From positions 118,385-182,384 of the forward strand of contig DCAE01000109.1 in NCBI GenBank assembly GCA_002311385.1: a stretch of 64,000 nucleotides of DNA. Direction: 5' to 3'. A model generated the notes under the pieces. It was not told where the DNA came from. It did no database searches and was given only the letters and a program-made list of their open reading frames with translations. Position 1 is the first letter of the stretch. Every line of letters starts with the position of its first letter. The stretch is from Dehalococcoidia bacterium UBA1141. GTDB taxonomy: Bacteria > Chloroflexota > Dehalococcoidia > Lucifugimonadales > UBA3495. A program made the position numbers and the translations under genes. Shown here piece after piece: positions 3,355-44,611 of this stretch.

Positions 3355-3537
3355 ATGGATGAGGTAGCAGAGACGGGCGAGCCAGTTCTCATAACCAAGA
3401 ATGACGTTCCAGTTGCAGAACTGGTTTCGGCTCGGCGCAAGCCTAAAGTTCTCTTCGGTTTGATGAAGGGGTCGGTTACCTACATCGGTGACATCATCTC
3501 TCCCGCAGAGGTGGAATGGGAAGCCGAAAGTGGATGA
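3355..3537 (+). CDS. Phd/YefM-type antitoxin (N-terminus problematic, see findings)
   Basis: MDEVAETGEPVLITKNDVPVAELV... matches the Phd/YefM core. The conserved first strand TIKASEFKAKCLKI is encoded in frame upstream (3313..3354) but is preceded by ATG-TGA (3307..3312). The gene overlaps the downstream PIN toxin. Confidence 0.7.
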   Translation: MDEVAETGEPVLITKNDVPVAELVSARRKPKVLFGLMKGSVTYIGDIISPAEVEWEAESG

Positions 3538-3940
3538 CCCTCTCGTTCTTGACACCCATACCCTTGTTGGGCTTGTGGAAGGTGAATCTCGATTGGGTCG
3601 AAAATCCCGTGAATTGGCTCAAGCGGCACTACAGTCAGACGTGCTGGCGGTTTCGGCGATTTGCTTTTTGGAGATTGCAATGCTCGTCAAGTCGGGGCGG
3701 CTGGGACTAGCCATGCCTACATCCGAATGGCACAGAGGATCCCTGAAACTAGGCATATTGGAAGCGCCAGTGACAGGGCAAATCGGGATTCTAGCCGAGG
3801 AGTCAGCTGGATTGCCGGGCGATTCAGCCGACCGAATCATAACCGCGACGGCGATAGTGCTAAATGCGACCTTGCTCACGGCAGATCAGCGCATCCTCAA
3901 TTGGCCGGTTAACTTGACGCGATTCGATGCCCGTGACTGA
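3530..3940 (+). CDS. vapC: PIN-domain ribonuclease toxin, VapC type
   Basis: GTG 3530 overlaps the antitoxin stop by 8 nt. The translation VDDPLVLDTHTLV...FLEIAMLV...DRIITATAIVLNATLLTADQRI shows the PIN acidic residues. Confidence 0.8.
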   Translation: MDDPLVLDTHTLVGLVEGESRLGRKSRELAQAALQSDVLAVSAICFLEIAMLVKSGRLGLAMPTSEWHRGSLKLGILEAPVTGQIGILAEESAGLPGDSADRIITATAIVLNATLLTADQRILNWPVNLTRFDARD

Positions 3941-4065: not shown

Positions 4066-4139
4066 TGGCTGCCCCGCCTGGGCTCGAACCAGGGATTTCA
4101 GCTCCAAAGGCTGACGTGCTACCACTACACCACGGGGCA
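4066..4139 (-). tRNA. tRNA-Gln (anticodon UUG), CCA encoded
   Basis: Hand-folded cloverleaf: acceptor UGCCCCG/CGGGGCA, D stem GUGU/GCAC, anticodon stem UCAGC/GCUGA with loop CUUUGGA, T arm CCUGG-UUCGAGC-CCAGG, discriminator G, CCA. 74 nt. Confidence 0.9.
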
Positions 4140-9712: not shown

Positions 9713-11080
9713 TTGGAATTCCTGTTAATAGGCTTAAATCACCGCACTTCCCCTCTGGATGTGCGTGAAAAATTAACCCTGACCAAGTCCCAGTGGCCCC
9801 AAGCGCTTAGTGACATGGCGGAATACGGGGTACCGGGCGTTATCCTCTCCACCTGCAACCGTTCCGAGTTTTATGCTCTGGAACCGGCCAACCCACAAAC
9901 CACGGAACAATCCTCAAAACTTAAATGGAAAGGTTCCGGCGAAGACCGCATCAAGCAGTTCTTGGTTGATAAATTCGACGTTTCCCTGCTGGACGTGGAC
10001 CGTTTCCTTTACGTTCACCGGGAACGCGATTGCGTTAACCACCTGTTCCGGGTAGCTTCCAGCCTAGATTCCATGATTCTCGGGGAAGAGCAAATCATCG
10101 GCCAGGTCAGGGAAGCCTTCGATATTGCCTCCCAATCGGAAAATCTTCCCAGTTCTTTGTCCTTTCTGTTCCAGCGGGCATTGCGAGTGGGAAGGCGGGT
10201 GCGGCGGGAAACCGGCATTGGCCGCAACGCAATGTCCGTCAGCAAAGCCTGCGTGGAGTTGGCCAAAAACGCCTTGGGCGACCTTAAGGGCCGAAGGGCG
10301 ATGGTGGTTGGCGCTGGCGACGCAGGAGAGTTGGCTGCCCAAGTGTTGTCCCGTTCCGGGGTGGACCAAATAACCGTGACCAACCGCACTTATGCGAGAG
10401 CCTTGGAATTGGCTAGAGGGCTTTCCGGCCAGGCAATACCTTTCCAAGAATTCCCGGACGCCTTGAAAACCTCCGACATTGTTATCGGATGCACCGGTTC
10501 CCCAGGCTATGTCCTGGAAGCCAGCGCCGTCCGCACGGCCATGGCTGCCAGGCCCGACAGGCCACTATTCTTGCTGGATATCGCCGTGCCCCGGGACATT
10601 GACCCGGAGGCCGGAAAAATCGAAAACGTGTTCCTCCATGACGTAGACGACCTTGAATCAGTTTCAGAAGCCAGTCGTGTAGAAAAAGCTGAAGAAGCCC
10701 GCAGCGCCGAAGATGTGGTGAACAAGGAATCGGAGTTGTTTCTAGATTGGTGGCGCACCTTGGAAGTGCTGCCCACGGTGATTAACCTGCGCCACAAGGC
10801 AGACCAAATCCGGGAGAAAGAACTGAACAAGACCCTCAAGCGCTTGAATGGCAAACTCTCTGCCGAGGAGATTGGTTCCATAGACTCAATGACCCAAGCA
10901 ATCGTTAATAAGCTGCTTCATGAACCCACGTTGTTTTTGAAGAATCGGCCTTCATCCACCGAGTTAGACCTGGCTAGAGAATTGTTTGGTTTATCTTCCC
11001 CATTGCCACAAGAACCCATTTCTCGGGACCACGTAAACCAGGACCACATAAATAATGAAAGTTCAGATGCTATTGATTGA
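9713..11080 (+). CDS. hemA: glutamyl-tRNA reductase
   Basis: (L/M)EFLLIGLNHRTSPLDVREKL..., catalytic LSTCNRSE and the NAD-binding VVGAGDAGE. The start is uncertain: the ORF track gives ATG 9626, but I prefer TTG 9713 (AGGTG lies 9 nt upstream), because the 13-nt tandem repeat would otherwise be coding. Confidence 0.85.
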   Translation: MEFLLIGLNHRTSPLDVREKLTLTKSQWPQALSDMAEYGVPGVILSTCNRSEFYALEPANPQTTEQSSKLKWKGSGEDRIKQFLVDKFDVSLLDVDRFLYVHRERDCVNHLFRVASSLDSMILGEEQIIGQVREAFDIASQSENLPSSLSFLFQRALRVGRRVRRETGIGRNAMSVSKACVELAKNALGDLKGRRAMVVGAGDAGELAAQVLSRSGVDQITVTNRTYARALELARGLSGQAIPFQEFPDALKTSDIVIGCTGSPGYVLEASAVRTAMAARPDRPLFLLDIAVPRDIDPEAGKIENVFLHDVDDLESVSEASRVEKAEEARSAEDVVNKESELFLDWWRTLEVLPTVINLRHKADQIREKELNKTLKRLNGKLSAEEIGSIDSMTQAIVNKLLHEPTLFLKNRPSSTELDLARELFGLSSPLPQEPISRDHVNQDHINNESSDAID

Positions 11081-11754
11081 TGTCCTTAGTTGAGAAATAC
11101 GCCCTTCTGCCCGACGAAATCGACCGGGAAAGCCTCAAAATGGTTGAGGCCAGCCTGCCCGGCGGGCTTTCCTTGTCCAAAACCGAGCACTACGTAATGT
11201 GCCGCATCGTCCGCGCTGAAGGGGATCCCGAAATTTCTTTGGACGTGGAATTTAGTGAAGGGGCAGTGACAACAGGTATTGCCGCGCTATTATCCGGTGT
11301 GGACGTGGTCACCGATGTGCGGATGGTGGAAGTGGGGATATCCAGAGCCCTGCTCTCCAAACTAGGGACGAATACCAGGTGTCAAATCGACACCCGCCAG
11401 GTTGCAGAACGAGCGATACAAGAAAGGACCACCAGGTCGGTGGCCGCCATAAGGGAGTTGTCTCCTCATTTAAATGGCGCAGTAGTCGCTGTGGGCAACG
11501 CCCCGACGGCGCTGTTGGCCCTGCTGGACTTGGTGAGTGAAGGACTGGTAAGACCAGCCTTGGTGGTGGGTATGCCGGTGGGGTATGTCGCTTGCGCCGA
11601 ATCCAAGGAAGAACTAACCCGTAGCGATGTCCCATACATCACAATCAAAGGCCGCAGAGGTGGTAGTTCCGCCGCCGCAGCCACCGTTAATGCTTTGCTT
11701 ACCCTTGCTCTAGAAGGGAATAAACCCGAAACCGGCGAAGCGGAAAAGGCCTAA
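11080..11754 (+). CDS. cbiC: cobalt-precorrin-8 methylmutase
   Basis: Contains GNAPTALLALLDLV, VVGMPVGYVACAESKEEL and KGRRGGSSAAAATVNAL signatures. The start overlaps the hemA stop (TGATG). Confidence 0.85.
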   Translation: MSLVEKYALLPDEIDRESLKMVEASLPGGLSLSKTEHYVMCRIVRAEGDPEISLDVEFSEGAVTTGIAALLSGVDVVTDVRMVEVGISRALLSKLGTNTRCQIDTRQVAERAIQERTTRSVAAIRELSPHLNGAVVAVGNAPTALLALLDLVSEGLVRPALVVGMPVGYVACAESKEELTRSDVPYITIKGRRGGSSAAAATVNALLTLALEGNKPETGEAEKA

Positions 11755-11759
11755 AAGCG

Positions 11760-12674
11760 ATGACACAAACAACCAACGGCTCAGCCGCCACCGGCGGTCA
11801 GCCCAGCGATTCGGATTGGGGAGTGGTGCTCATCGCCCACGGCAGCCAGCGGGGTACTGATCGCACCGAGTGCTCTTGCGCATGGGAGCAAACCGGTTCT
11901 CAACGCCCGAATTGGTGCCTGGAATGCCCCAGCACGCCAGAGGGGCTGATTGACGCCACCGGCAGATTTCGCTCGCATCTAGGCTTGTCGGAACATCAGG
12001 TCGTCTTATCTTGCCTAGAGTTCATCGAGCCGTTCCCCAAACAGGCGGTCGGCATACTGAAAGACAGAGGATTTCGTCAGGTGGCCTTGGTACCTTTCCT
12101 TTTGGGCAGCGGCAAACACGCCACATTGGAAATGGAAGAAGTGTTGCAGGAAGTGCAGGAAGACGCACCGGACGTTCGCATGCACCTGGCAGAGGGTCTG
12201 GGCAGCGACCCGCTCCTGGCTGAACTGGTAGTTCAAAGAGTACAAGGGCTGGCTGACAAACAGGAATTCCAGCCATCGGGGGAGAAAACCTCCGGAATCG
12301 TTTTGGTCAAGGCTGGCACCAAGACAATCTACGATGATTGCGTATGGCTTAAGGAACTAGGGGAACTGGTGGAAGAGCGGCTTGGTCCAGGATATGCCGT
12401 GTCGGTGGGCCAGTCCCATTACGGCGACCCTACCATGGAAGCAGCTACAGAGGTTTTGGTCAGACAGAGAAATGTATCTTCTCTCATGTACGTGCCCTAT
12501 CTATTTTTCCCAGGCATCATCTTGAAAAGGAACGTACTGGGCACTATGAGTGAATTGCAAAACACCTATCCAGGGATACCCATGACGGTCACACCCCCGT
12601 TGGGAGCAGGCGGTCAAGCGGTGGCAGTGGCGGCGCAGCGCGTCCAGCGGCTCTGGACTCAGACCCAAGGCTAA
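11760..12674 (+). CDS. cbiX: sirohydrochlorin cobaltochelatase, two-domain CbiX type
   Basis: Two CbiX-like halves (VVLIAHGSQRG...; IVLVKAGTK...) and its position in the cbi operon. The N-terminal half carries a Cys-rich insert, TECSCAWEQTGSQRPNWCLEC. Confidence 0.7.
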   Translation: MTQTTNGSAATGGQPSDSDWGVVLIAHGSQRGTDRTECSCAWEQTGSQRPNWCLECPSTPEGLIDATGRFRSHLGLSEHQVVLSCLEFIEPFPKQAVGILKDRGFRQVALVPFLLGSGKHATLEMEEVLQEVQEDAPDVRMHLAEGLGSDPLLAELVVQRVQGLADKQEFQPSGEKTSGIVLVKAGTKTIYDDCVWLKELGELVEERLGPGYAVSVGQSHYGDPTMEAATEVLVRQRNVSSLMYVPYLFFPGIILKRNVLGTMSELQNTYPGIPMTVTPPLGAGGQAVAVAAQRVQRLWTQTQG

Positions 12675-12961
12675 TTCAATTCGAAACAACCATCCTGCTA
12701 ACCCCTAACCTGATTAGCTTCGCTGGCCAAGCTCTTGTCAACGGCCAAACTGCCTCAGAAATCGCCCTGGTTAATTTCAACAAACCCACAGATTGTTTCT
12801 TTTGAGCAAATTCCGGTGGGCAAATTCCGGCTCGTGGCGTTCCGTCAGACGGTATTCCCGGCCCCGGTGCGATATACTGGTTCTACACGAATCCCCTGGC
12901 CTTGGTTTCAGCGGCTATCGCTGAGAATATTTGGCCTATATTTGGACACAACAGCAAGATT

Positions 12962-14215
12962 ATGAGTAGCGTTCAACCACCGGAAAATCATGAAGAAAGC
13001 GACTACAGCCGCCAGACGGTGACACGTAAGGGCATGCGCACCGGTTACACCACCGGGTCTTGCGCAGCAGCAGCAGCAAAGGCCGCAACCCTGAGCTTGC
13101 TGACCGGTAATTCGGTTGAGAAAGTCACTATTCACTTGCCTGTTGGAAAAGATGTCACTTTTACTCTCAACCGGTGCCAGCAGATAGACGGTGGAACCAG
13201 TGTTCTGTGCTCAGTGATAAAAGACGGAGGCGACGACCCGGATGTCACCCACGGCGCTGAAATATGCGCCACCGTCTCCCGCACGCCAGCCTTTTTGGAA
13301 CAACCTCCCACTACCGAAGAGAAAAATCCCACGACCGGACAAAGAATCTCCATAACCGGCGGAATTGGCGTCGGCACGGTGACCCGCCCCGGAACGGGCA
13401 TCGAAGTGGGCCAGCCAGCGGTGACCCGAGTGCCCCGCCGGATGATAATCGAATCGATGGAGCAAGCAGGAAACGAGTGCGGCCTGGAGCCCGATGCTTG
13501 CCTGACCGTGGAACTCTCCGTGCCCACCGGCGCGGAAATCGCACTAAAAACAACCAATTCGCGCCTGGGTGTCATGGGTGGAATCTCAATCTTGGGCAGC
13601 ACAGGCGTGGTCCAACCCTATTCCACCGCCGCCTGGCGGGCGAGCGTGCACTTGGCCATAGATGTGGCCGCCGCCAATAATCTGGAGCACCTGATACTAT
13701 CCACCGGAACACAGAGCGAGATATTCACCAAGCGTCGATTGGACCTGCCGGACATGGCCTATATCGAGGCCGGCATATTCAGCGGCCCCGCTCTGAAACG
13801 TTGCGTCACTCGGGGCATCGGTCGGGCGACTCATGTGGGCATGGTCGGCAAATTCTCCAAGATGGCAATGGGCTACTTCGTTACCCACGTGGCGGGCAAC
13901 AAGGTGGACACCGAATTCCTTGCTTCTCTGGCCGCCCAATGCGGCGCAACGGCTGAACTGCAAGAGGAAATGAAGGGCGCCGCCAGTGGCCGCCACTTCC
14001 AGGAAATCGCCCAGGCAGCAAATATTGAAGCGGTATTCCCTCTCATGTGCCGCCTAGTCTGCGAAGAAAGCCACATGCTTCTGGGTGACGACGCCGATAA
14101 ATTGATTGTCGACGCCCTGTGTTTCGATTTCGACGGTGCTTTACTGGGCCAAGCCTCCACCTCTCCCGAGGGCATCACATTGTTAGCGCCTTCAGGGTCG
14201 GCCACCATTGGGTGA
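12962..14215 (+). CDS. cbiD: cobalt-precorrin-5B (C1)-methyltransferase
   Basis: GMRTGYTTGSCAAAAAKAATL... and GDDPDVTHGAEI are typical CbiD motifs. ATG 12962 is preferred over GTG 12902. Confidence 0.9.
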   Translation: MSSVQPPENHEESDYSRQTVTRKGMRTGYTTGSCAAAAAKAATLSLLTGNSVEKVTIHLPVGKDVTFTLNRCQQIDGGTSVLCSVIKDGGDDPDVTHGAEICATVSRTPAFLEQPPTTEEKNPTTGQRISITGGIGVGTVTRPGTGIEVGQPAVTRVPRRMIIESMEQAGNECGLEPDACLTVELSVPTGAEIALKTTNSRLGVMGGISILGSTGVVQPYSTAAWRASVHLAIDVAAANNLEHLILSTGTQSEIFTKRRLDLPDMAYIEAGIFSGPALKRCVTRGIGRATHVGMVGKFSKMAMGYFVTHVAGNKVDTEFLASLAAQCGATAELQEEMKGAASGRHFQEIAQAANIEAVFPLMCRLVCEESHMLLGDDADKLIVDALCFDFDGALLGQASTSPEGITLLAPSGSATIG

Positions 14216-14858
14216 GGTATCCTCCCAACCTGCCGATTCTGACCGCAAAACCGACGCGGCAATCATCCTCCCTCGGGCTCTGGGTTTGCCAGACAGCGCT
14301 TTTGAGCAACGCACGCCCTTGCGAGGCCAAATCACCAAAAGGGAAGTGCGGGCAGTCTCCCTGTATGCCTTGGGCCTGAGGCCGAGTAGCGTTGTTTGGG
14401 ACGTAGGCTCTGGCACAGGGTCCGTGGCGGTGGAAGCCGCCTTGATTGCCCACCGAGGGACTGTGTACGCCATTGAACGTGACGAAGCAAGCATCAATTT
14501 GCTAAAAGCCAACGTGGACAAGTGGGGCTCAGGAAACATCCGGGTGATGGCTGGCGAGGCCCCTGGGATCTTGGACAATCTGGAAGACCCTGACTCGGTG
14601 TTTATCGGCGGCAGCGGCGGCAGACTCGCCGACATCCTGGATGTTGCGGCCAGGCGGGTAAAGTTGGATGGCCGCATAGTGGTGAACCTGGCGGTGCTCG
14701 AACGGACTCTGGACACGATTAAAAAAATGAAAGAACTGGGGTTCGCTACGGAGTTGTCCATGGTCAGTTCATCTCGAGGTAGAGAGATGCCCGATGGCGC
14801 CACTCGTCTGGAAGCTCTGAACCCGGTGTTCGTCGTGTCCGCCCAGCGAGATTCCTAG
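14208..14858 (+). CDS. cbiT: cobalt-precorrin-6B C15-methyltransferase (decarboxylating)
   Basis: Class I SAM fold VWDVGSGTGSVAVEAA with a CbiT-type N-terminus (TKREVRAVSL). Overlaps the cbiD stop by 8 nt. Confidence 0.8.
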   Translation: MGEVSSQPADSDRKTDAAIILPRALGLPDSAFEQRTPLRGQITKREVRAVSLYALGLRPSSVVWDVGSGTGSVAVEAALIAHRGTVYAIERDEASINLLKANVDKWGSGNIRVMAGEAPGILDNLEDPDSVFIGGSGGRLADILDVAARRVKLDGRIVVNLAVLERTLDTIKKMKELGFATELSMVSSSRGREMPDGATRLEALNPVFVVSAQRDS

Positions 14859-14860
14859 CC

Positions 14861-15607
14861 TTGAGCACCGGTCCGGGAACCAACGCATCCGGATCAACCC
14901 CTGTGGGGACACTCTTCGGCGTCGGGGTAGGTCCCGGCGACCCGGAGCTATTAACACTAAAGGCCCTACGCATCATCCGGGCCGCAGCCGTGATATGTGC
15001 TCCACAATCGGAAACGAGACCGGATAGTTATGCGCTGGGTATCATCCGGGAATACCTGGATGCCGATAATCAGGAAGTTCTGCGGCTGACCTTCCCGGTG
15101 GACGACCCCGAAGGCGCAGCGGGAGTGTGGCGGTCAGGGGCCGATACTTTGGCCCAAAGACTGTATGGCGGGCAGGATGTGGCATTCATCACCGAAGGCG
15201 ACCCCATGTTGTTCAGCACATTCATCTATATGCTGGAAGCCATGACTGCGGAGCACCCATCAATACCTGTGGAAATAATCCCGGGGGTTTCCTCGGTCAT
15301 GGCTGCGGCGGCCAGCAGCAAAGTGCCCCTGGCCACCCATGGACAACGGTTGGCGGTGCTGCCCACAGTTTACGGGATTGACGACCTTTCTGAGGCTATT
15401 GCCAGCTACGATACTATTGTACTGATGAAGGTGAACCGGGAATTGTTGGGTGCCTTGGAAAACCTGGACGGCCTGGGTCTCGCCGGCAAGTCGGTGTTTG
15501 TGCGCCGGGTGAGCACCCCAAGTGAAAAGGTCGTAAGCGACGTAAAACAGTTGACCCAAGAAGACGTGGATTATTTCTCCCTGCTCATTGTTAAAAGAGA
15601 CGGTTAA
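14861..15607 (+). CDS. cbiL: cobalt-factor II / precorrin-2 C20-methyltransferase
   Basis: Tetrapyrrole methylase signature LFGVGVGPGDPELLTLKALRII, in the operon context. Confidence 0.8.
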   Translation: MSTGPGTNASGSTPVGTLFGVGVGPGDPELLTLKALRIIRAAAVICAPQSETRPDSYALGIIREYLDADNQEVLRLTFPVDDPEGAAGVWRSGADTLAQRLYGGQDVAFITEGDPMLFSTFIYMLEAMTAEHPSIPVEIIPGVSSVMAAAASSKVPLATHGQRLAVLPTVYGIDDLSEAIASYDTIVLMKVNRELLGALENLDGLGLAGKSVFVRRVSTPSEKVVSDVKQLTQEDVDYFSLLIVKRDG

Positions 15608-15657
15608 AAGGGACGGATAGCACCGTTAAGAACCCTAATTCTTATAAGGTTGGCCCA

Positions 15658-16542
15658 ATGACCACTGCAAAAGGCAAGGTTTATTTCGTTGGCGGAGGCC
15701 CCGGCGACCCGGATTTATTGACCATCAAGGCCAAGCGGATTATCGAGTCCGCCGACGTAATAATCTATGCCGACTCCTTGGTCCATCCATCCATCGTCGA
15801 GTTCGCCAAAGACGGAGCAGAGGTCCACGGCAGCAAAGAGATGACGCTGCCAGAAATGATGCGGTTGGCCGTGGATTCCGTGGCCCAAGGTAAGACGGTG
15901 GCGCGGGTGCAAAGCGGCGACCCGGCAATCTACGGCGCAATGATTGAGCAGATGAGGGTGCTCGAATCCGAGGGCATTGAATACGAGGTGATTCCGGGGG
16001 TAAGCTCTGCATTTGCCGCCGCAGCCGTCCTAAAGGCGGAGCTAACCGTGCCCGAGATTTCCCAGACCGTGATCCTGACCCGGGCTGAGGGCCGGGTGGC
16101 CATGCCGCCCAAGGAGCAACTAAAAGACCTGGCGGCCCACGGTTGCACGGTGGTCATTTTCATGAGCATAACGAGGACAACTCGGATCGTCAGGGAATTC
16201 AGGGCCGCCGGTTACTCCAAGGACACCCCGGTGGCGGTGGTTTACCGCGTGGGCTGGCCCGACCAGAAAGTAATCCGCGGCACCTTGGCCGATATTGCCG
16301 CCAAGGTCCGGGAGGCCAAGATTACCTTGCAGGCCTTAGTCATGGTGGGTCGGGCATTGGACCCGGCGTTGAGGCAACCCGAGCAGCCTGGGGTCGGCTC
16401 GGCGACCTCCCACCTGTATTCCGCCGAGTACACTCATCTGTACCGAAAATCCCAGAGCAGGACCAAGCCAGCGGGCTCCAGACTAACTAAAGCCAAAGAA
16501 GAATCCGGCGAAAGCAAGACGACCGGCGCCAAAGCCAGCTGA
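15658..16542 (+). CDS. cbiF: cobalt-precorrin-4 C11-methyltransferase
   Basis: KVYFVGGGPGDPDLLTIKAKRIIESADVIIYADSLV and RVQSGDPAIYGA are CbiF/CobM-like. It has a roughly 45-aa charged C-terminal tail. Confidence 0.85.
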   Translation: MTTAKGKVYFVGGGPGDPDLLTIKAKRIIESADVIIYADSLVHPSIVEFAKDGAEVHGSKEMTLPEMMRLAVDSVAQGKTVARVQSGDPAIYGAMIEQMRVLESEGIEYEVIPGVSSAFAAAAVLKAELTVPEISQTVILTRAEGRVAMPPKEQLKDLAAHGCTVVIFMSITRTTRIVREFRAAGYSKDTPVAVVYRVGWPDQKVIRGTLADIAAKVREAKITLQALVMVGRALDPALRQPEQPGVGSATSHLYSAEYTHLYRKSQSRTKPAGSRLTKAKEESGESKTTGAKAS

Positions 16543-16552
16543 CGGTCTGCCT

Positions 16553-17761
16553 ATGACCAGCAACCCCACCAACACTTCTCGTAGCACAGCAATCGTCGCT
16601 ATATCCAGTCGTGGGGCGGTAATGGCCCGAAGATTGGTGGACCGTCTGGAAGGTCCGGTGGAATTGCATGTGTCCCGACGATACTCTCAGCCAGCCGGTT
16701 CTGAAACTTCCTTCGAACTGCCAGCACGGCCTGTTGTTCAAGAATTGTTCAACACAGCGAAAAGTTTAATCTTGTTCATGCCCGTCGGCGCGGCCGTCCG
16801 GCTTTTGGCCTCGTCCCTAGATGACAAACACTCCGACCCGGCAGTCGTCTGCGTCGATGACGGCGGCCGGTTCGCTGTGAGCCTGGTTTCCGGGCATCTG
16901 GGTGGCGCGGACGCCTTGGCCCAAGAAGTAGCGGCGGCTCTGGGAGCCACCCCCGTGATAACATCGGGATCCCACGCATTGGGTGTGTTCGCCGCCGACA
17001 TGCTGGGCCGTGAATTTGGCTGGACCATCGAAACTCGACCGGGCCACCTGACCCGCGCCAGCGCCGCAGTGGTGAACGGTGAGGCAGTGGGACTGTTTCA
17101 AGACGCAGGACAGACGGATTGGCAATCGGCTGACCAAGAACTTCCAAATAACATGACGATTTTCTCGTCGATCGGCGCAGTCATGGGCTCCGACTGCGCC
17201 GCAGCGTTGATCATCACCGACCGAAACGACTCAGAATTATCAGACTTGAAATCAATCGAAGATGAGGCCTCGAACAAGGCTGTGGTAGTCTACCGGCCCA
17301 AGACTTTAGTGGCCGGTATGGGTTGCCGCAAAGGCGTCTCTGCGGATCATCTGTTAGAGCTTCTAACCAAGGCCTTTGAAGCCAACGATCTGTCGTTAAG
17401 CAGCCTCAGTTGCATCGCTACGGCGGATTTGAAACGAGATGAACCCGGCTTGATTGAACTGGCGGCCAAATACGATGTGCCGCTCCGCTGCTACAGCACA
17501 GGCGAGCTAAATTCGGTGTTCGGCGAAGAAAGTTCAAACGCGACAACTGGAATCGGCAATACGGTCGCAACCGCCCGACCAAGGGTGCACGGCCTGCTGG
17601 GTGTTTGGGGAGTTTCAGAGCCTGCCGCCCTGTTGGCCGCAGGGAGCAGGGAACTACTGGCGGAAAGAATCAAGACGGACCGGGCTACGATTGCTATAGC
17701 CCGTATTGGACACCTTCAGATTTTATCGGCCTCCTCGTCAACCGCCGGGAAAAGCGAATAG
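16553..17761 (+). CDS. cbiG: cobalt-precorrin-5A hydrolase
   Basis: N-terminal CbiG domain (AIVAISSRG...), a middle domain, and the C-terminal LVAGMGCRKG...IATADLKRDEPGL segment. Confidence 0.8.
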   Translation: MTSNPTNTSRSTAIVAISSRGAVMARRLVDRLEGPVELHVSRRYSQPAGSETSFELPARPVVQELFNTAKSLILFMPVGAAVRLLASSLDDKHSDPAVVCVDDGGRFAVSLVSGHLGGADALAQEVAAALGATPVITSGSHALGVFAADMLGREFGWTIETRPGHLTRASAAVVNGEAVGLFQDAGQTDWQSADQELPNNMTIFSSIGAVMGSDCAAALIITDRNDSELSDLKSIEDEASNKAVVVYRPKTLVAGMGCRKGVSADHLLELLTKAFEANDLSLSSLSCIATADLKRDEPGLIELAAKYDVPLRCYSTGELNSVFGEESSNATTGIGNTVATARPRVHGLLGVWGVSEPAALLAAGSRELLAERIKTDRATIAIARIGHLQILSASSSTAGKSE

Positions 17762-17763
17762 CG

Positions 17764-18972
17764 ATGCCCACGACCGAGAGCAAACTTCTGGGGCCAAAGG
17801 GCTGGTCTTTCCCTGATGACCCAGCGGACATACGGTTAGCTCTCCTGGCCAAAATCGACGGTCTGAAAGAAACGCTGGAGGCCGGAGTAGACGAAGGAGA
17901 ACAAAACAGCACCCTGGCATCTGGGGTGGTTGACGCCTTGTATGACGCCGGGCTCTTTGCGATAAAATTACCCCGAGAGTTGGGCGGGGCAGAGGCCGAT
18001 TTGGTCACCCAGATGGAAGTGATAGAGGCGCTGAGCCGCATTGAGCCCTCTGCCGGATGGTGCACCATGATTGGGGCCACAGGGATCGGCCTTATCGGCG
18101 CCCACCTTCCAGATGAGGCAATCTCCCAAATCTTCCCCGGAGGCAGTGTTCCTAGGAGCGCCGGGGCTTTCATGCCCATGGGCAAGGCTGAGACCGTTGA
18201 TGGAGGTTACTTGGTCAACGGACGCTGGTCTTTTGCCAGCGGAATCCGTCACTCCCACTGGTTGTCGGCGGGCGCCCTTGTGGTCAAGGACGGGAAGACA
18301 ACCGATGAGTACATCAGGGCGGTGTTCCCAACTTCGGATGCAGTGATTCACGACAACTGGGATGTCGCTGGCCTCAAAGGCACGGGCAGCTGCGATTTTT
18401 CAGTATCAGGCCTCTTCGTTCCTCAGGAGTTCACCTACCCCCGGGCGGCCGCTGAGCCCAAACGAGGAGGCTCCTTATACCGCCTGGGATGGCCCGGTTT
18501 CGTCGCCTATGAGCATGCCGCATTTGCATTGGGAGTAGGCAGGCGAGCATTGGACGTGATTGTTGCGGAGGCCAGCGCGAAAATCCGTGGAATGCAACCG
18601 TCGCGTTTGGCTTCAAGGCCTTCGTTCCAAAAGTCCCTCGGCGAGTGCGACCTGAGATTGAAGGCCGCCAGGACGTTGGTGATCCACCTTTTGGAGGAGG
18701 CCTGGGATCAGGCCAGTCAAGGAGTCATCCCGGGGCCTCAACTTCAAGGGGAAATGCGTAGCTCCGCCACCTTCGCTACTTCGGTGGCTCTAGATGTTGT
18801 GACCACCGCTTTTCGCTACGGTGGTGGTTCGGCTCTTTATACCACCAGCGTTCTACAGAGGTGCCTGCGGGACCTGAACGCCGCTGCTCAACACCTGATG
18901 GTTAGCGATTCCGCATACGAAAATCATGGGCAGTTCATGTTGGATATCCCTGACGCTGACCCCATGGGTTGA
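17764..18972 (+). CDS. acyl-CoA dehydrogenase-fold flavoprotein (type-2 ACAD / group-D flavin monooxygenase-like)
   Basis: ATG 17764 lies 2 nt after the cbiG stop. Contains ...GLFAIKLPRELGGAEADLVTQMEVIEALSRIEPSAGWC... and DNWDVAGLKGTGSCDFSVSGLFVPQEF. Paralogous to 38449..39633. Confidence 0.8.
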   Translation: MPTTESKLLGPKGWSFPDDPADIRLALLAKIDGLKETLEAGVDEGEQNSTLASGVVDALYDAGLFAIKLPRELGGAEADLVTQMEVIEALSRIEPSAGWCTMIGATGIGLIGAHLPDEAISQIFPGGSVPRSAGAFMPMGKAETVDGGYLVNGRWSFASGIRHSHWLSAGALVVKDGKTTDEYIRAVFPTSDAVIHDNWDVAGLKGTGSCDFSVSGLFVPQEFTYPRAAAEPKRGGSLYRLGWPGFVAYEHAAFALGVGRRALDVIVAEASAKIRGMQPSRLASRPSFQKSLGECDLRLKAARTLVIHLLEEAWDQASQGVIPGPQLQGEMRSSATFATSVALDVVTTAFRYGGGSALYTTSVLQRCLRDLNAAAQHLMVSDSAYENHGQFMLDIPDADPMG

Positions 18973-19071
18973 AGGATTCCAGCGGTCGACTCTGCGAATT
19001 GGCCGTTGGCTTCCAGGTTTGGACCTACGATCTTATCAACCAACTTAGTAAATAAGTTTAGGAACGTAAAA

Positions 19072-19848
19072 ATGACCAACCGGGAATCACTTGGAAAATT
19101 ATATTTGGTAGGTTTGGGGCCAGGGGGGCTTGAGCATCTGACCCCAGCGGCGAAGGAGGCTCTGCAAAGGGTCGACTCTGTTGTGGGATACGGGCCCTAC
19201 GTTGAGCAAGTTGGTTCCTTGGTACAAGGCAAGAACCTGGTAACCATGGATTTGGGCCAAGAACTGGAGAGGGCAGCCAAGGCTGTGGAGTTGGCCTACA
19301 GTGGGCATCAGGTCGCCGTCGTGTCTTCCGGTGACGCGGGCATCTACGGAATGGCAGGGCCGGTTTTTCGGGTCCTAGTGGACCGTGGTTGGGACGGTGA
19401 AAATCCTCCACTGGAGGTCGTGCCCGGAATCTCGGCTATGCAATCCGCCGCCGCCATACTGGGCTCGCCGCTGATGCAGGACTTTTGCGCCATCAGCTTG
19501 AGTAACCTGCTCACGCCCTGGGAAACAATAAGGCGCCGCTTGGAAGCCGCCGCCCAAGGCGACTTTGTGGTCGCCTTATATAACCCCCGCAGCCGGAAGC
19601 GGAATCAGCAACTGCAGGAAGCCCGCAGCATCTTGCTGGAACACCGTTCCGGTCAAACCCCGGTAGGCATCGTTCGGGATGCCTACCGCTCCGGCCAAGG
19701 CGTAACCCTCACTGACCTAGAGCACTTGATTGAACATGTGGAATCGGTGGACATGGTGACAGTGGTTTTAATCGGCAACTCTACCAGCTTCATCCACCGG
19801 GAACACATGGTCACCCCCAGAGGCTACGAGGTAAAACAGGCTCCTTAG
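19072..19848 (+). CDS. cbiH: cobalt-factor III / precorrin-3B C17-methyltransferase
   Basis: KLYLVGLGPGGLEHLTPAAKEALQRVDSVVGYGPY and VSSGDAGIYGMAG. ATG 19072 is preferred over the upstream alternative start. Confidence 0.85.
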   Translation: MTNRESLGKLYLVGLGPGGLEHLTPAAKEALQRVDSVVGYGPYVEQVGSLVQGKNLVTMDLGQELERAAKAVELAYSGHQVAVVSSGDAGIYGMAGPVFRVLVDRGWDGENPPLEVVPGISAMQSAAAILGSPLMQDFCAISLSNLLTPWETIRRRLEAAAQGDFVVALYNPRSRKRNQQLQEARSILLEHRSGQTPVGIVRDAYRSGQGVTLTDLEHLIEHVESVDMVTVVLIGNSTSFIHREHMVTPRGYEVKQAP

Positions 19849-32241: not shown

Positions 32242-32509
32242 CCTTAGGCGCATTTCTAACCCCATAGTTCCAGGGTGGCCAGTGAGCCAACCCAATCTCC
32301 AACGCCGTTTCCCTACACGCTTCAGTCATTCCCCATCTGACAATATTGGCCTGCTGGACAGCGGCCATCTAACCTCACGCCCGTTGGTTGACGCTGGTAA
32401 ATGGGGCTGATAGACTCGAACCAACCCAAGATTCCTCGGAGATTGAGCACAAGATTAGCTTTAATAAACCGACCGAGGAGTCCGGTAAACAAAGTGCGGG
32501 AGTCGAAAG

Positions 32510-33163
32510 ATGACCCAGCCAGTTCAGCCCTGGGAGCAAGGTACTAGCCCTGTTAGGGTAGCCGTATGGTACGACTACATTTGACCCTGGTGCTACGTCG
32601 GCCTGGAAAGAGTCGACAAGCTGGCCAAAGAGTACGATATCAAGGTGGAGGGGCGGGCCTACCTCCTGCGTCCCGATACCCCCAAAGAGGGATCGCCTAG
32701 GCCACCCCGGCCCGGCGAAACCGAGGATGAATTGTCCGACCCACTGCGCAGTCAAGCCAGTGAAGCTGGCCTAATCATGCGCCCTCCCTCGGTAACCCCC
32801 AACACAATGTATGCGCTTCAGGCCACCGAGTATGCCCAGCAGCAAGGCTTGTTCATGGAGTTTCACCACGCCGCCTACGTGGCGTTCTGGGAGAACCGCC
32901 AGGACTTGGGCGATTTGGCCGTTATAGAAGAAGTGGGGCGGGAGGTTGGGTTAAATACCAAGGAAATGATGGAGCGGTTGGAAAGCAACCACTACGAAGA
33001 AGCAGTGATGGGCCAGTACCAGGAAGCATTGCAGTACGGCATCAGCGGCATTCCTACTTTTTTGGTCGGGAATCTGATGTTCACCGGTGCCCACCCCTAC
33101 GACATTTTCAAATCCGCCATGGGGCGGTTGCTGTCGCCCGAGGAACCGCCGGCGTCAAGCTAG
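32510..33163 (+). CDS. DsbA/FrnE-like thiol-disulfide oxidoreductase, candidate selenoprotein (U-P-W-C)
   Basis: ATG 32510 (GGGAG upstream) is in frame with ORF 32645..33163 through a single TGA at 32582..32584. The context VAVWYDYI-U-PWCYVG is the DsbA-family CxxC strand. The C-terminus carries GISGIPTF. Confidence 0.75.
32597..32617 (+). promoter_or_regulatory. SECIS-like hairpin 12 nt after UGA
   Basis: GUCGGC - CUGGAAAGA - GUCGAC, 6 bp including one G-U pair. Confidence 0.45.
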
Positions 33164-33192: not shown

Positions 33193-33236
33193 AAAAAATA
33201 GGGGCGCCCAACGGATGTGGGGCGCCCCTATTTTAT
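33193..33236. terminator. bidirectional rho-independent terminator
   Basis: AAAAAATAGGGGCGCC - loop - GGCGCCCCTATTTTATT, between convergent genes. Confidence 0.85.
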
Positions 33237-33269
33237 TATCTTGGCTCTGGTCTGAGTTTACTTGATGAA

Positions 33270-35183
33270 TCAGTCGTCACTGGCCGAGGCAGGAACCAGC
33301 CCCCCTCCCGAGCCCGATAGGCCAGCATGGGTCAGACCGTAGTTCACCGCATGAAGCCTGGCGTAAACACCGCCCGACTCAAGTAATTCTTTGTGGTTCC
33401 CAACCTCTGCCACGCGTCCTTTGTCTAGGACAACAATCTTGTCTGCATTGCGAATGGTGGATAGGCGGTGGGCAATGACAATGGATGTTCTGCCCTTTAA
33501 GATGCGCTTTAAAGCATCCTGGATAAGCAACTCAGTCTGGGTGTCTATGTTGGCGGTGGCCTCATCCAGGATGATAACCCTGGGGTTCCCAACGATGGCC
33601 CGGGCGAAGCTCAATAGCTGACGCTGACCCACGCTGAGGTTCACACCGCGCTCCGCCAGCACCGTATCGTAGCCGTCTTCCAGTCCCATGATGAACTCAT
33701 GGGCCCCAACGGCTTTGCCCGCCGCTATCACTTCCTCATCGGTTGCATGTTGAACGCTGTATCGAATATTGTCGCTGATGGTGCCGGAAAACAGATAAGG
33801 CTCTTGGAGCACCATGCTCATCTGCCTAACCATCGACTGGCGATTCACCTGACGTATGTCATAACCGTCCATGGTGATTCTGCCCTTGGTGACATCAGCG
33901 AATCGGTGAATCAGGGTGACCATAGTGGTCTTTCCGGCTCCGGTTGAGCCGACTAAGGCGACATTTTCTCCGGGTTTAATATCGAGGTTTATGTCAATCA
34001 ATACGTCCACTTCTGGGACGTAATGAAAGGTCACATCCTCAAACCTGATGTGGCCTTTTATGGGGGGCATGTCTTCGGCGTCTTCTTCGTCGATGACCTC
34101 GGGCTTCAGGTCCAATACCTCGAAGATTCGGACTCCTGCGGCCATAGCCCGTTGCAATTGGCTGTACTGCATCGTCAGGTGGCGGACAGGTTCGAAAAAC
34201 CTCTGTATCCACAGAGCGAAGGCAACCAAGACGCCCCACTCCAGGCTTCCGCCTTGGGCCATGATGCCCCCAACCAGCACCACACCGAAGCCCATGCCGA
34301 TCCCTATCAGTATCTCCACCATGGGTTGTAGCCCACCGGAGAACCGGCTGGCTTCCAAGTTCGCGTCCAAGTGCTCTCGATTCAAGCTTTCGAAGTGCTT
34401 CAGGTTCACGTCCTGGCGGTTTAGACTCTCCACCACGCGGACACCGGTGATGTTTTGGTTGTACTCACCATTTACCATGGCGATCGCGCGGCGTATCCGC
34501 ATGAAGGAGTGGCGAGCGAACTTCTGCCAGTACCCCAGGATAAAGAACAGCACAGGCACGATACTCATGCTCACCAGAGCCAATCGCCAATCGATGAACA
34601 GCATCATGACGACAATTCCCAACAGGCTGAGAATGTCCGAGAAACTTTGGACAATCAGCTCAAAAGTTTCTTGTAGTTGAAGCACATCGCTCTGGCTGCG
34701 GGACATGATGCGGCCCACGGGGGTCCGGTGGAAAAATGAGGGAGACAATGTCTGAAGGTGGTTAAACATGGCAGTGCGGAGGGAATACAAGATCCCTTGC
34801 CCCACCTTGGGCATGTAGACCAACTGGACATAGTTGGCCAAGAAGTGCATCACCGTGACCCCAACAAAGATGCCGCCCACTACGTGCAGCCGCCACAATT
34901 CCCCTTCGTTGATGGCCCAGTTGATGCCCAGCATCATGAGCAGGGGAATACTCACGTTCCCCACTGTGTACAACAAGACCGCCAAAAGGCTAATAATAAC
35001 GTCTCGTTTATAGGGCTTTATGTAGCTTAGCAACCTGATCACAACTTTGTGGTCGTATACATTCCCGACGATGGTCTCATCGGTGAGGTTGTCCATGTTG
35101 GGTGTGTTTATGCCCCCGGCCTGAAGCCCGCGCATTCCGCCCATCATGCCGCCAAATCCGCCTCCCGGGCCTGCCGCGCGCAT
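33270..35183 (-). CDS. ABC exporter, fused permease/ATPase subunit (type I exporter)
   Basis: Six-TM region, then Walker A GSTGAGKTT, signature LSVGQRQ and Walker B IILDEATA. Gly-rich N-terminal tail. Confidence 0.9.
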   Translation of the reverse strand: MRAAGPGGGFGGMMGGMRGLQAGGINTPNMDNLTDETIVGNVYDHKVVIRLLSYIKPYKRDVIISLLAVLLYTVGNVSIPLLMMLGINWAINEGELWRLHVVGGIFVGVTVMHFLANYVQLVYMPKVGQGILYSLRTAMFNHLQTLSPSFFHRTPVGRIMSRSQSDVLQLQETFELIVQSFSDILSLLGIVVMMLFIDWRLALVSMSIVPVLFFILGYWQKFARHSFMRIRRAIAMVNGEYNQNITGVRVVESLNRQDVNLKHFESLNREHLDANLEASRFSGGLQPMVEILIGIGMGFGVVLVGGIMAQGGSLEWGVLVAFALWIQRFFEPVRHLTMQYSQLQRAMAAGVRIFEVLDLKPEVIDEEDAEDMPPIKGHIRFEDVTFHYVPEVDVLIDINLDIKPGENVALVGSTGAGKTTMVTLIHRFADVTKGRITMDGYDIRQVNRQSMVRQMSMVLQEPYLFSGTISDNIRYSVQHATDEEVIAAGKAVGAHEFIMGLEDGYDTVLAERGVNLSVGQRQLLSFARAIVGNPRVIILDEATANIDTQTELLIQDALKRILKGRTSIVIAHRLSTIRNADKIVVLDKGRVAEVGNHKELLESGGVYARLHAVNYGLTHAGLSGSGGGLVPASASDD

Positions 35184-36985
35184 TAGGCGTCACCTCCGTC
35201 GTCACTGGCTATAGCAGCGTCCAAGAGAAGCTCTTCTTGGGGCCGCAGTTGTAGTTCGTAGATGTCCCGATACATGCCGCCCTGAACCATCAGCGCTTCG
35301 TGGGTGCCCTGCTGTGCCACTACGCCATCTTTCAACACCACGATAAGGTCGGCATCCCGCACGGTGCTCAAACGGTGGGCAATAACAAAAGTGGTGCGGC
35401 CTTTCATGACCCCGATCATGGCTTCATGAATCTGACGCTCGGTTTCCACATCGACGCTGGATGTGGAGTCGTCTAGAATCAATATTGGCGGATTCAAAAG
35501 TATGGTGCGGGCGATGGACAAACGTTGCCTCTGACCACCGGACAGGGTCGTTCCCCGCTCACCGACACTGGTGTCATAACCGTCCGGCAACGACATGATG
35601 TGGTCGTGAAGTTGGGCCACTTTGGCGGCCGCTTCAATCTCCTCTAAAGAGGCATCCACGACGCCATATGCTATATTGTCGCGAATATTTCCGCCAAAGA
35701 GGAACACATCTTGTTGCACGATTCCCACGTTGCGGCGTAGCGAAGCAAGGGTGAAATCCCGTATGTCCCGGCCGTCTATGGTGATTCGGCCCTCGGTCAC
35801 GTCATAAAACCTGGGCAGCAGATTGACCACGGTGGTCTTGCCGCTGCCGGGCGCTCCGAGAATGGCCGTGACCTGGCCCGGTTCGGCATCGATGCTCAGG
35901 TGTTTCAAGGCAGGAAGCCTTGCTTCATAGGCGAATGAGAGGTCTTCAAACCTTACGTGGCCTTTAGACCGGTCCAAGTCGTCAGCCTCTTTCTTCTCTT
36001 CCACAGGCGAAACTGCGTCCAAAACATCGAAGAGCCTCTGGCCGGAAGAGATGGCCCGGGAGAAGCTATTGATGATGAATGCGGACATGCGTATGGGGAA
36101 GGTGAGCTGGTTCAAATACAGAATGAACATGGTCAGCTGACCAGGAGTTATGTCTCCCCTGATTACCTCCCAGCCTCCCACCCACAGAATCAAAGCCAAT
36201 GCCAAGGTGAAGTAGAAGGTCATCCATGCGCTGTTGGTTCCCTGCAACCGTTCGGATTGGAAGTACTCCCCCCGCAACCGTTGGGCGCTTTCAGCGAACT
36301 TTTCCTTCTCAAACTCCTCGGAGCCGAATGCCTTCACCACATGAATGCCCACCAGGTTCTCTTGCAAAACGGTGACCGTCTCACCCATCACTTCCTGGAC
36401 TCGGGTCCACATTTCCCGGAGGCGGCCCATGACCAAGGTGGTGCGAAAGACCAAGAATGGCACGAAGGCAAGGCTAATCAGGGCCAGTTTCCAATCTATG
36501 ACCACCAGGATGGCCGTGATGGCCACTATTCGCAACACTACTTCCAACGAGCGAACCAACCCCATGTTCACGAACCGGCGTACCGCCTCAACATCGGCGG
36601 TTGCCTTGGACATCAAGTTACCGGTGTGCTCTTTGTCGTGATAGGCGAAGCTGAGGTGTTGCAGCTTGTCGTAGAGTTGATTGCGGAAATCATAGGAGAC
36701 CAATTGGGACAGGGAGTCAACCGCGTAGGTGCGAGCAAAATCCAAGAAGCCGCGGACCAAGCTGGCGCAAAGGATAGCGGTGGCCAATAACACCAGGGTG
36801 GAACGGGCTACATCCTTACCGCCTATGCCTTCATCGGTGACGGACACCAACCGGTCAATTGAGGTTCCGAAGAGGTAGGGTATAAGCAGGGAAACGCCAA
36901 CGGCGCCGAGGAAAGTTAGGTAGGCCAAAGTAAGGCGGGTTGGGTACCGCCAGGCCATACGGGTGATGCGGATCAGGATTTGCAT
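35183..36985 (-). CDS. ABC exporter, fused permease/ATPase subunit, partner of 33270..35183
   Basis: Walker A GAPGSGKTT, LSGGQRQR and ILILDDSTS. Its stop overlaps the partner start (TAATG). Confidence 0.9.
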   Translation of the reverse strand: MQILIRITRMAWRYPTRLTLAYLTFLGAVGVSLLIPYLFGTSIDRLVSVTDEGIGGKDVARSTLVLLATAILCASLVRGFLDFARTYAVDSLSQLVSYDFRNQLYDKLQHLSFAYHDKEHTGNLMSKATADVEAVRRFVNMGLVRSLEVVLRIVAITAILVVIDWKLALISLAFVPFLVFRTTLVMGRLREMWTRVQEVMGETVTVLQENLVGIHVVKAFGSEEFEKEKFAESAQRLRGEYFQSERLQGTNSAWMTFYFTLALALILWVGGWEVIRGDITPGQLTMFILYLNQLTFPIRMSAFIINSFSRAISSGQRLFDVLDAVSPVEEKKEADDLDRSKGHVRFEDLSFAYEARLPALKHLSIDAEPGQVTAILGAPGSGKTTVVNLLPRFYDVTEGRITIDGRDIRDFTLASLRRNVGIVQQDVFLFGGNIRDNIAYGVVDASLEEIEAAAKVAQLHDHIMSLPDGYDTSVGERGTTLSGGQRQRLSIARTILLNPPILILDDSTSSVDVETERQIHEAMIGVMKGRTTFVIAHRLSTVRDADLIVVLKDGVVAQQGTHEALMVQGGMYRDIYELQLRPQEELLLDAAIASDDGGDA

Positions 36986-37448: not shown

Positions 37449-38182
37449 TTATTTTCGGGCCAGAACTTCTACCGCTACCACGGCCTGATTCTTCGTGCGA
37501 GCGTTTCGGAATGTGCGTAGTACGGCAGCGTCTTTGAAGCCTGCTTGGCGGAACTCCTGAAGGAAGACTACGCCCTCCTTGGCTCCAGCCACTCAAGCAA
37601 ACCAATTCTCAGGTGTTGGTTCTACTTTCTCTGAACCGGCTTCCCGCAGAACAAGCTCCGCCGCAAATACGCATCCTCCAGGCTTCACCACTCGGGCAAG
37701 CTCTGTGAATATCTTTGAACGTTCCGAGTTCAAGTTGAATATCCCATTAACCAACGCCACATCTACGGAGAGATCTTCCAAGGGCAGGCTTTCTGCGTCA
37801 GAGTGAAATATCTTGATATTGGTGGCCCCGGATTCCAGCACGGCCTGTTCCATGCTCGATAGCATCGCCGAACTAAAATCCACAGCCAGTACTTGACCTT
37901 GGGGCCCAACACGCCCAGCGGCAATGATGGAGTCCAATCCTGCGCCGGAGCCCAAATCCAATACCGTCGCTCTTGATGGAATCTCCGCCAACAAGGACAG
38001 GTTAGAGACGCCAGCGAATGCGTCTACAGCCACCGCGGGCAACCCCCTGGCGGGATAGCGCCGACACTCTCGGCTAAATCCCGGCCAACGGGGAACGGAT
38101 GGTCCTCATCAGGGTGTTGAGCAGCCCTGCTATATGCTTCTCGAACGCCCTCTCTAAGACCCGAAACATTTATTTCATTCAT
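37449..38182 (-). CDS. ArsM-like class I SAM methyltransferase, candidate selenoprotein, also carrying a one-base frameshift
   Basis: The track ORF 37593..38042 continues in frame past TGA 37595..37593 for 47 codons to TAA 37451..37449 (PENWFA-U-VAGAKEGVVFLQEFRQAGF...). The N-terminal 47 codons from ATG 38182 (MNEINVSGLREGVREAYSRAAQHPDEDHPFPVGRDLAESVGAIPPGG) are shifted at a G5 run (38043..38047 on the + strand). SAM motif VLDLGSGAGLD. Confidence 0.7.
37560..37580 (-). promoter_or_regulatory. SECIS-like hairpin 12 nt after UGA
   Basis: AAGGAGG - GCGUAGU - CUUCCUU, 7 bp including one G-U pair. Confidence 0.5.
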
Positions 38183-44008: not shown

Positions 44009-44611
44009 CTAGTCTTTCGGCACCATCAGCCATTTTTGTTGGGCGGCGGCTGGGCTTAGCCACCGCTCATGGGCCTCTTGCCTGCCTGGCGGCACCTCCA
44101 CCCCCAGTCCGTCAGCCAAACGCGTCATGAAATTGAACTGGCATGTAATTAGGGCCACCGATAGTATTTCCTCATCGCTTAAGCCAAGGGCTCGAAGCGC
44201 TTCCACGTCCGAGCGCTGCATCGAAGTGGGATCTCTGGTAAGTTTCGACGCATAATCCAACATTCCTCGGGTTTGAGGGTCTAGTTCAGCATCGTTATAG
44301 TCGTGCATCACGTGGCTGGCCAACTCGGGGTCGTCGGAGTGCTGACGGAGGAACCCTCCGTGAGCCATCGTTCAATATCGGCATTTGTTTATCACCGAAA
44401 CCACCGTGGCGATGGCTTCTTCCTGAACTCTGGTCAGATTTGAGCCCCCAAAGAACAAGGCCTGGCTGAGGTTAAGCACCGATTCCATCGCTTTCGGGTT
44501 GATGGACATGACCTTAATCACCGGGGGCGGATCGCCGGATTTTGGCTCTGTTTCTCGTATCCAAGACATATCGTCACCATCCGGATGGTAGATTTGGTGA
44601 GATAGTACCAA
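44009..44611 (-). CDS. AhpD/carboxymuconolactone-decarboxylase-family peroxidase-related protein, candidate selenoprotein (C-R-Y-U)
   Basis: Track ORFs 44372..44611 and 44009..44368 are one frame joined by TGA 44374..44372: ...VVSVINKCRY-U-TMAHGGFLRQH.... This matches the CMD-family CxxC-x3-H motif. The start may be ATG 44569 (MSWIRE). Confidence 0.75.
44345..44361 (-). promoter_or_regulatory. SECIS-like hairpin 10 nt after UGA
   Basis: ACGGAGG - GUU - CCUCCGU, a perfect 7-bp stem. It can be extended by 3 more pairs across a C-C mismatch. Confidence 0.55.

Follow-up and report, generated by a model that had tools for sequence, protein, structure and literature searches.

An in-frame UGA at the active site of a DsbA/FrnE-like oxidoreductase gene of Dehalococcoidia bacterium UBA1141 very probably encodes selenocysteine

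A DsbA-like protein (COG2761) with a UXXC motif, U standing for selenocysteine (Sec), was first reported from the Sargasso Sea metagenome, together with a predicted Sec insertion sequence (SECIS) element (Zhang, Fomenko and Gladyshev, 2005; PMC1088965). Among about 5,200 genomes surveyed later, 41 had the DsbA-like selenoprotein (Peng et al., 2016; PMC5029168), and a 2026 review lists 'DsbA-like protein form 1, PF01323, UxxC' (PMC13188914). A literature search on selenoproteins of SAR202 and sponge Chloroflexi found little; the useful papers were these three, PMC13326102 and PMC5649159. Here we analyze a 64,000-nucleotide stretch of Dehalococcoidia bacterium UBA1141 (GenBank assembly GCA_002311385.1, contig DCAE01000109.1, positions 118,385 to 182,384), referred to as the window and numbered from its first letter. 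Positions 32510–33163 are very probably one gene, in which the UGA at codon 25 is decoded as Sec. The gene shares with DsbA-like form 1 the Pfam domain, a UxxC motif with predicted Sec in first position, a SECIS-like element directly after the UGA and an origin in marine uncultured bacteria. We see no difference in kind, with placement in the subfamily made by domain and motif and not by alignment with AACY01178397 or NIP15863.1. Every defining feature of the family that was tested is present. The gene represents neither a new mechanism nor a new family.

Read from ATG 32510, the frame comprises 217 codons with a single in-frame TGA at 32582–32584 and closes with TAG at 33161–33163. The peptide runs from MTQPVQPWEQGTSPVRVAVWYDYI through the TGA to PWCYVGLERVDKLAKEYDIKVEGRAYLLRPD and on through GISGIPTF to a final ASS. 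An earlier reading of the letters alone (the sequence-only reading) had proposed this start, with GGGAG shortly upstream, and an otherwise intact gene; the GGGAG lies at 32498–32502 with a 7-nt spacer, and the frame does continue uninterrupted to the TAG. As that reading had also noticed, a mechanical list of open reading frames (ORFs) contains only the stretch from GTG 32645 to 33163, a 172-amino-acid (aa) product that leaves the active site outside. When Cys is placed at the TGA, PF01323 (DSBA) matches residues 17–204 (E 4e-36; 125 bits, cutoff 25.6), and the domain therefore spans the stop codon. The TGA falls in a U-P-W-C motif whose second cysteine, Cys28, is the sole cysteine of the predicted 217-residue protein.

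Domain and structure matches identify the gene product as a predicted thiol-disulfide oxidoreductase of the DsbA-like/FrnE family (COG2761, PF01323). Its best solved relatives are FrnE of Deinococcus radiodurans (5CNW and 5CP1, E 1e-15) and SCO1869 of Streptomyces coelicolor (3GL5, E 4e-11), in which 'w-s-d-i-a-C-P-W-C-y-(i/v)-g' aligns to 'w-y-d-y-i-U-P-W-C-y-v-g' of the window. The UGA thus sits on the first, nucleophilic cysteine of the redox motif, where the sequence-only reading had placed it. We also searched 1.84 billion cluster representatives exhaustively, with the post-UGA portion of the protein as query. Full-length Cys-form homologues with 34–42% identity were recovered; four metagenomic ones (P0122, P0136, P0145 and P0153) read (D/S)Y(I/V)CPWCY(V/I)G, and P0147 and P0150 have CPFC in the same column. 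The expectation that Cys occupies this column is borne out by 5CNW, 3GL5 and the four CPWC homologues. Distant homologues of 27–31% identity (P0127, P0128, P0133, P0138, P0139 and others) are 520–1160 aa long and contain 2–5 tandem DsbA/FrnE-like stretches.

Likeness to D. radiodurans FrnE, aligned over residues 13–213, includes the CPWC in register, the helical insertion and the G-(I/V)-P-x-F loop. The G-I-P-T-F of the window protein aligns with 'tGvPfF' of FrnE, and we take its proline to be the cis-Pro of the thioredoxin fold. FrnE differs in having Cys at the active site and 260 aa, against predicted Sec and 217 aa here. FrnE lacks an N-terminal signal peptide and has an additional cysteine pair, in communication with the active site, on a C-terminal tail. 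Such an extension is missing from the window protein, which would thus be a FrnE-like core outside the D. radiodurans subtype. SCO1869 resembles it in belonging to the DSBA-like fold family and in the segment 'vrveiwsdiaCPWCyvg'. SCO1869 and the proteins similar to 2-hydroxychromene-2-carboxylate (HCCA) isomerase and kappa-class glutathione transferase (3FZ5, 2IMD) have the same fold, are farther away (E 4e-11 to 7e-6) and are all Cys forms; the HCCA isomerases, unlike the window protein, perform glutathione chemistry. Periplasmic DsbA of Escherichia coli has in common with it the thioredoxin fold with helical insertion, a CxxC-type centre and the Pfam clan, but DsbA has a signal peptide and PH where the window motif has PW. 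Canonical DsbA structures match weakly (4PWP, E 3e-5, in the C-terminal half alone), and the window protein matches the FrnE branch.

The N-terminus, MTQPVQPWEQGTSPVRV, is polar and leads directly into strand 1 with no hydrophobic stretch, as judged by eye, and the N-termini of orthologues are likewise polar and variable. Inspection of the N-terminal sequence, made without a predictor, revealed neither an export signal peptide nor a lipobox. Since a hydrophobic N-terminus is missing, the protein is probably cytoplasmic, like FrnE.

The stop codon is conserved across species. We scanned one genome per GTDB species and obtained 80 loci, all from Dehalococcoidia, SAR202 or Chloroflexota metagenome-assembled genomes, at which tblastn alignments run through the stop. 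The column reads TGA-PWC at 78 loci and TGA-AWC at one, and a contig end interrupts the last. All 79 assessable Dehalococcoidia/SAR202 species (64–89% identity) have TGA, and none of them has TGC, TGT, TAA or TAG. The compared sequences are 78 distinct ones with no redundant copies, and no species among them has another stop or an indel from 11 codons before to 178 codons after the TGA. The peptides on either side, PVRVxVWYDYI upstream and PWCYVGLERV downstream, are conserved with synonymous variation. Before the UGA, W-5, D-3 and Y-2 are invariant, and synonymous changes occur in these and nearby codons (Y-2 is TAC in 39 and TAT in 39; V-10 uses at least three codons), which places the upstream peptide under protein-level selection.

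Existing protein collections contain only the truncated form. In a collection of 5.8 billion sequences, the 120 nearest protein clusters (67–97% identity) are 158–184 aa long with 72–83% query coverage. Gene callers truncated every one of them at the UGA, with loss of the active site, and the predicted starts fall in four or more alignment columns, all after the CxxC position.

Bacterial SECIS elements are described as having a loop of 3–9 nt, an upper stem of 4–16 bp, G in loop position 1 or 2, a UGA-to-loop distance of 16–37 nt and a minimum free energy (MFE) of at most -7.5 kcal/mol (PMC13188914). The window has a hairpin with the core GUCGGC/CUGGAAAGA/GUCGAC at 32597–32617, 12 nt past the TGA, exactly as in the sequence-only reading. 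Its upper stem of 8 bp pairs 32597–32604 with 32609–32617 around a bulged A at 32611, and its lower stem pairs 32592–32594 with 32619–32621. Numbered from the U of UGA, 16–23 pair with 29–36 and 11–13 with 38–40. The apical loop, GGAA at 32605–32608, begins 20 nt after the UGA; most species have GAG or GGAG(C) there. The local MFE is -11.0 kcal/mol, and the hairpin falls within all of the published limits. Orthologue hairpins have loops of 3–6 nt, upper stems of 7–9 bp in most cases, a UGA-to-loop distance of 20–21 nt and MFEs of -8.0 to -15.7 kcal/mol, with 78 of 78 at or below -7.5. The hairpin agrees with the bacterial consensus (the bSECISearch model, with E. coli fdhF as type example) in its location within the coding sequence (CDS), small G(G/A) loop, spacing, stem and MFE. 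Its sequence does not resemble those of the E. coli elements, and SelB binding is a prediction here.

Selection acts on this segment at the RNA level. Relative to an expectation from gene-wide codon usage, synonymous codon diversity is 0.40 over codons +1 to +12, versus 0.93 over the 116 other informative codons (Mann–Whitney p = 7e-5). The dip is limited to about codons -1 to +12, where single codons predominate (GGC 78/78, GTC 58/61, CTG 76/78 and GTC 74/78). Stem pairing is held in 93.4% of cells, versus 19–48% when the partners are slid by 1–3 columns. Double, compensatory changes occur in three pairs and include CG>GC and CG>UA; at two loci (L011, L020) GUC..GAC has become GUG..CAC, which keeps the pair despite an Asp-to-His substitution. 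Of the two lines of evidence, the synonymous-site footprint is a stronger argument for an RNA element than the covariation. The sequence-only reading had noted that the hairpin lies where bacterial SECIS elements are found, and synonymous conservation, the published criteria and the few compensatory changes agree with a SECIS element.

Constraint extends beyond the hairpin to the codons that flank the UGA, a feature that the SECIS consensus model does not have. Ile -1 (32579–32581) is ATT in 67 of the 67 species with Ile there, and Pro +1 (32585–32587) is CCC in 62 of 78; both codons lie outside the hairpin. These frozen codons may reflect a context effect on recoding versus termination.

We considered that TGC or TGT might be the true codon, as the sequence-only reading had allowed. 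The window falls within JGI metagenome contig 3300003702 PicMicro_10000009 (387,604 bp). The same TGA is found in contigs of six other samples (SRR5325066, ERZ1643211, ERZ27248910, ERR10542866, ERR15133361 and ERZ23486251; ENA and Logan assemblies), which differ around it by just one or two single-nucleotide polymorphisms (SNPs), and at least 23 contigs from other samples yield an identical call of the 172-aa fragment. Because the codon agrees in seven contigs, which come from seven samples and from different assemblers, and 79 other species also have TGA, a sequencing or assembly error at 32582–32584 is excluded. Strain SNPs among otherwise identical contigs are G/A at 32494, in the 5' untranslated region, and C/T at 32683.

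Two further genes in the window have an in-frame TGA and belong to known selenoprotein families. One is AhpD-like, and AhpD-like proteins with CxxU are a known selenoprotein family (PMC1088965; PMC13188914). TIGR01926 matches it across the TGA (131 bits, cutoff 81.8), and a hairpin of 7+3 bp with loop GUU begins 17 nt after the UGA. In the output of gene callers it appears as two pieces, of 65 and 70 aa, and neither has a Pfam match. The other is ArsM-like: its best NCBIfam matches are the ArsM selenoprotein models, its U aligns with the conserved arsenic-binding cysteine of ArsM structures 5EVJ and 4FR0, and the hairpin after its UGA has -24.2 kcal/mol (z = -2.2). A 2-nt insertion and a 9-nt deletion near 38040–38060 frameshift about 40 N-terminal codons of this gene in the window strain and at loci L001, L002 and L006, and the gene may be a recent pseudogene in the window strain; the 246-codon frame is intact in strains L004, L005, L007 and L008.

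The closest sequenced relative at the locus (L010, chromosome OY761986.2) has the same gene order, with 89% protein identity and 77% DNA identity over 3.8 kb. Its organism, 'Dehalococcoidia bacterium 10f4566d-ab44-49ae-b774-fc9f760c6436', has 46 selenoprotein genes in BSepDB and ranks tenth among all bacteria (PMC13326102, a 2026 survey). For a species to enter BSepDB, two or more of SelA, SelB and SelD had to be present (PMC13326102). A genetic code in which UGA is reassigned as a sense codon was considered and rejected, as TGA ends 21 of the 56 called genes in the window.

Several results weigh against Sec decoding. Pfam-annotated calls, ARAGORN and Rfam found no selA, selB, selD or tRNA-Sec in the window or within 10 kb on either side; Rfam at gathering thresholds matched tRNA-Gln alone in the whole window, with no SECIS-type family. 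ARAGORN likewise reported no tRNA, hence no tRNA-Sec, on 60 related loci. The single-sequence fold of 32582–32650 is no stabler than shuffles (z = -0.02), so that support for the hairpin comes from the comparison between species. There, covariation is limited to 5 cells in 3 pairs, and RNAalifold returns just six core pairs, to which its covariation term contributes negligibly. The sparse covariation is explained by an element that is nearly frozen, and part of its invariance is amino-acid conservation. Finally, Sec rather than Cys at codon 25 is read from the sequence alone. From the two further TGA genes of the window and the listing of the closest relative in BSepDB, which are indirect but consistent support, we infer that the source genome has the Sec machinery.

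One alternative is that the UGA is recoded and Cys or another amino acid is inserted, either by a suppressor tRNA or by SelA/SelD using sulfur under selenium limitation. Cys would be functional at this position, to judge by the Cys-form homologues, selenium in the protein is a sequence-based prediction, and no Sec machinery was seen in the window and its flanks. On the other hand, the hairpin after the UGA is built like a bacterial SECIS that depends on SelB, all three in-frame UGAs described here fall on redox or metal-binding cysteine positions of known selenoprotein families, and the nearest relative belongs to a genome set selected for the Sec pathway. Had Cys been intended, TGC or TGT would be expected in some of the 79 species. 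We regard insertion of an amino acid other than Sec as improbable.

Two other alternatives leave the UGA as a stop. Automatic annotation in every database entry implies that translation ends at the UGA and that a separate 172-aa DsbA-like protein with no active site begins at GTG 32645. This start is not conserved, as predicted starts fall in at least four columns; the intervening 20 codons, from the UGA to GTG 32645, show protein-level conservation along with synonymous changes; and both the Pfam domain and the FrnE alignment begin upstream of the UGA. A thioredoxin fold deprived of strand 1 and of the beginning of helix 1 would also not be expected to form. This makes a separate downstream protein highly improbable. 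A decaying gene with a chance nonsense mutation at its catalytic cysteine codon would likewise explain why gene callers stop at the TGA, and the frameshifted ArsM-like gene nearby indicates that decay does occur in this strain. Decay would not, however, retain TGA specifically at this codon in every one of the 79 species, leave purifying selection on both sides with no other stop or indel, or suppress synonymous change in the next 12 codons alone. The conservation pattern on the two sides of the UGA argues strongly against both a pseudogene and a separate downstream start, and the pseudogene explanation is effectively refuted. The preference of the sequence-only reading for Sec recoding over a chance nonsense mutation is supported by the conserved TGA and flanks.

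If codon 25 is decoded as Sec, the following mechanism can be proposed. With a ribosome at the UGA, the downstream mRNA would fold into the hairpin (12-nt spacer, 8-bp stem and small loop starting with GG). SelB, the Sec-specific elongation factor, would bind the hairpin and, competing with release factor 2, deliver Sec-tRNA(Sec), as in the standard bacterial pathway. The resulting U25-P-W-C28 centre would lie at the start of helix 1 in a thioredoxin fold with the DsbA-type helical insertion. Its selenolate would attack substrate disulfides or oxidised thiols, and Cys28 would resolve the intermediate as an intramolecular selenenylsulfide. With Cys28 as the only cysteine, the redox couple would have to be U25/C28, cycling between selenolate/thiol and selenenylsulfide.

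The Sec form appears to be fixed across 79 SAR202/Dehalococcoidia species, a well-supported further example for the view that marine Dehalococcoidia are rich in selenoproteins. One consequence concerns annotation: because gene calls truncate at UGA, and two more such genes are hidden in this window, redox enzymes would be systematically undercounted in functional profiles of SAR202/Dehalococcoidia. A more speculative and on balance rather unlikely extension is that a core cytoplasmic thiol-disulfide enzyme has become strictly selenium-dependent in an abundant marine lineage, with a recoding context that goes beyond the canonical SECIS model. If this were true, then given a density of roughly one selenoprotein gene every 20 kb of the window, selenium supply would be a real ecological constraint for SAR202.

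Table 1. Coordinates of the predicted selenoprotein gene, its elements and related features (window numbering)
Feature	Position	Strand	Basis
Shine–Dalgarno-like GGGAG	32498..32502	+	7-nt spacer to ATG 32510; read from sequence
Full CDS of predicted DsbA/FrnE-like selenoprotein, 217 codons, Sec predicted at codon 25	32510..33163	+	Translation; PF01323; frame conservation in 79 species
In-frame UGA, predicted U25, nucleophilic first position of U-P-W-C redox motif	32582..32584	+	TGA conservation; alignment of Cys column
TGC, Cys28, predicted resolving Cys of U-P-W-C	32591..32593	+	Translation; Cys in 78/78 aligned sequences
SECIS-like hairpin within CDS	32592..32621	+	MFE, pairing, synonymous diversity, published criteria
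G-I-P-T-F conserved Pro loop of thioredoxin/DsbA fold, predicted to face the active site	33047..33061	+	G180-I181-P182-T183-F184 invariant (alignment A1)
GC-rich inverted repeat AGGGGCGCCC...GGGCGCCCCT flanked by A-run and T-run	33200..33240	.	Sequence; terminator-like scan matched inner part 33217-33231
ArsM-like S-adenosylmethionine methyltransferase, motif NWFA-U-VAGA, TGA 37593-37595	~37449-38182	-	NCBIfam; structure alignment
AhpD-like / peroxidase-related gene, motif C-R-Y-U, TGA 44372-44374	44009-44569	-	TIGR01926

The predicted selenoprotein gene lies between a hybrid histidine kinase gene upstream and a convergent pair of generic MsbA-like ATP-binding cassette (ABC) exporter genes downstream, the nearer of which ends at 33270, facing it. 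By its match to the consensus, the inverted repeat at 33200–33240 is probably a bidirectional intrinsic terminator for both convergent transcripts. The exporter pair (33270–36985) was considered as a CydDC thiol exporter, and this was rejected: all of its NCBIfam matches, CydD and CydC included, are below cutoff, as are the best ones, to MsbA-like or generic type-1 exporters. The pair is syntenic with the selenoprotein gene in many relatives, and we claim no functional link. The neighbouring genes give no clue to function.

Elsewhere in the window, a cobalamin biosynthesis cluster (9713–19848, + strand) follows hemA (GlutR) and comprises CbiC, CbiX, CbiD, a small methyltransferase, three TP_methylase genes and CbiG, with an acyl-CoA-dehydrogenase-like gene embedded at 17764–18972. 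A PhdYeFM antitoxin/PIN toxin pair (3355–3940, + strand) adjoins the only tRNA of the window, tRNA-Gln (UUG) at 4066–4139 on the - strand.

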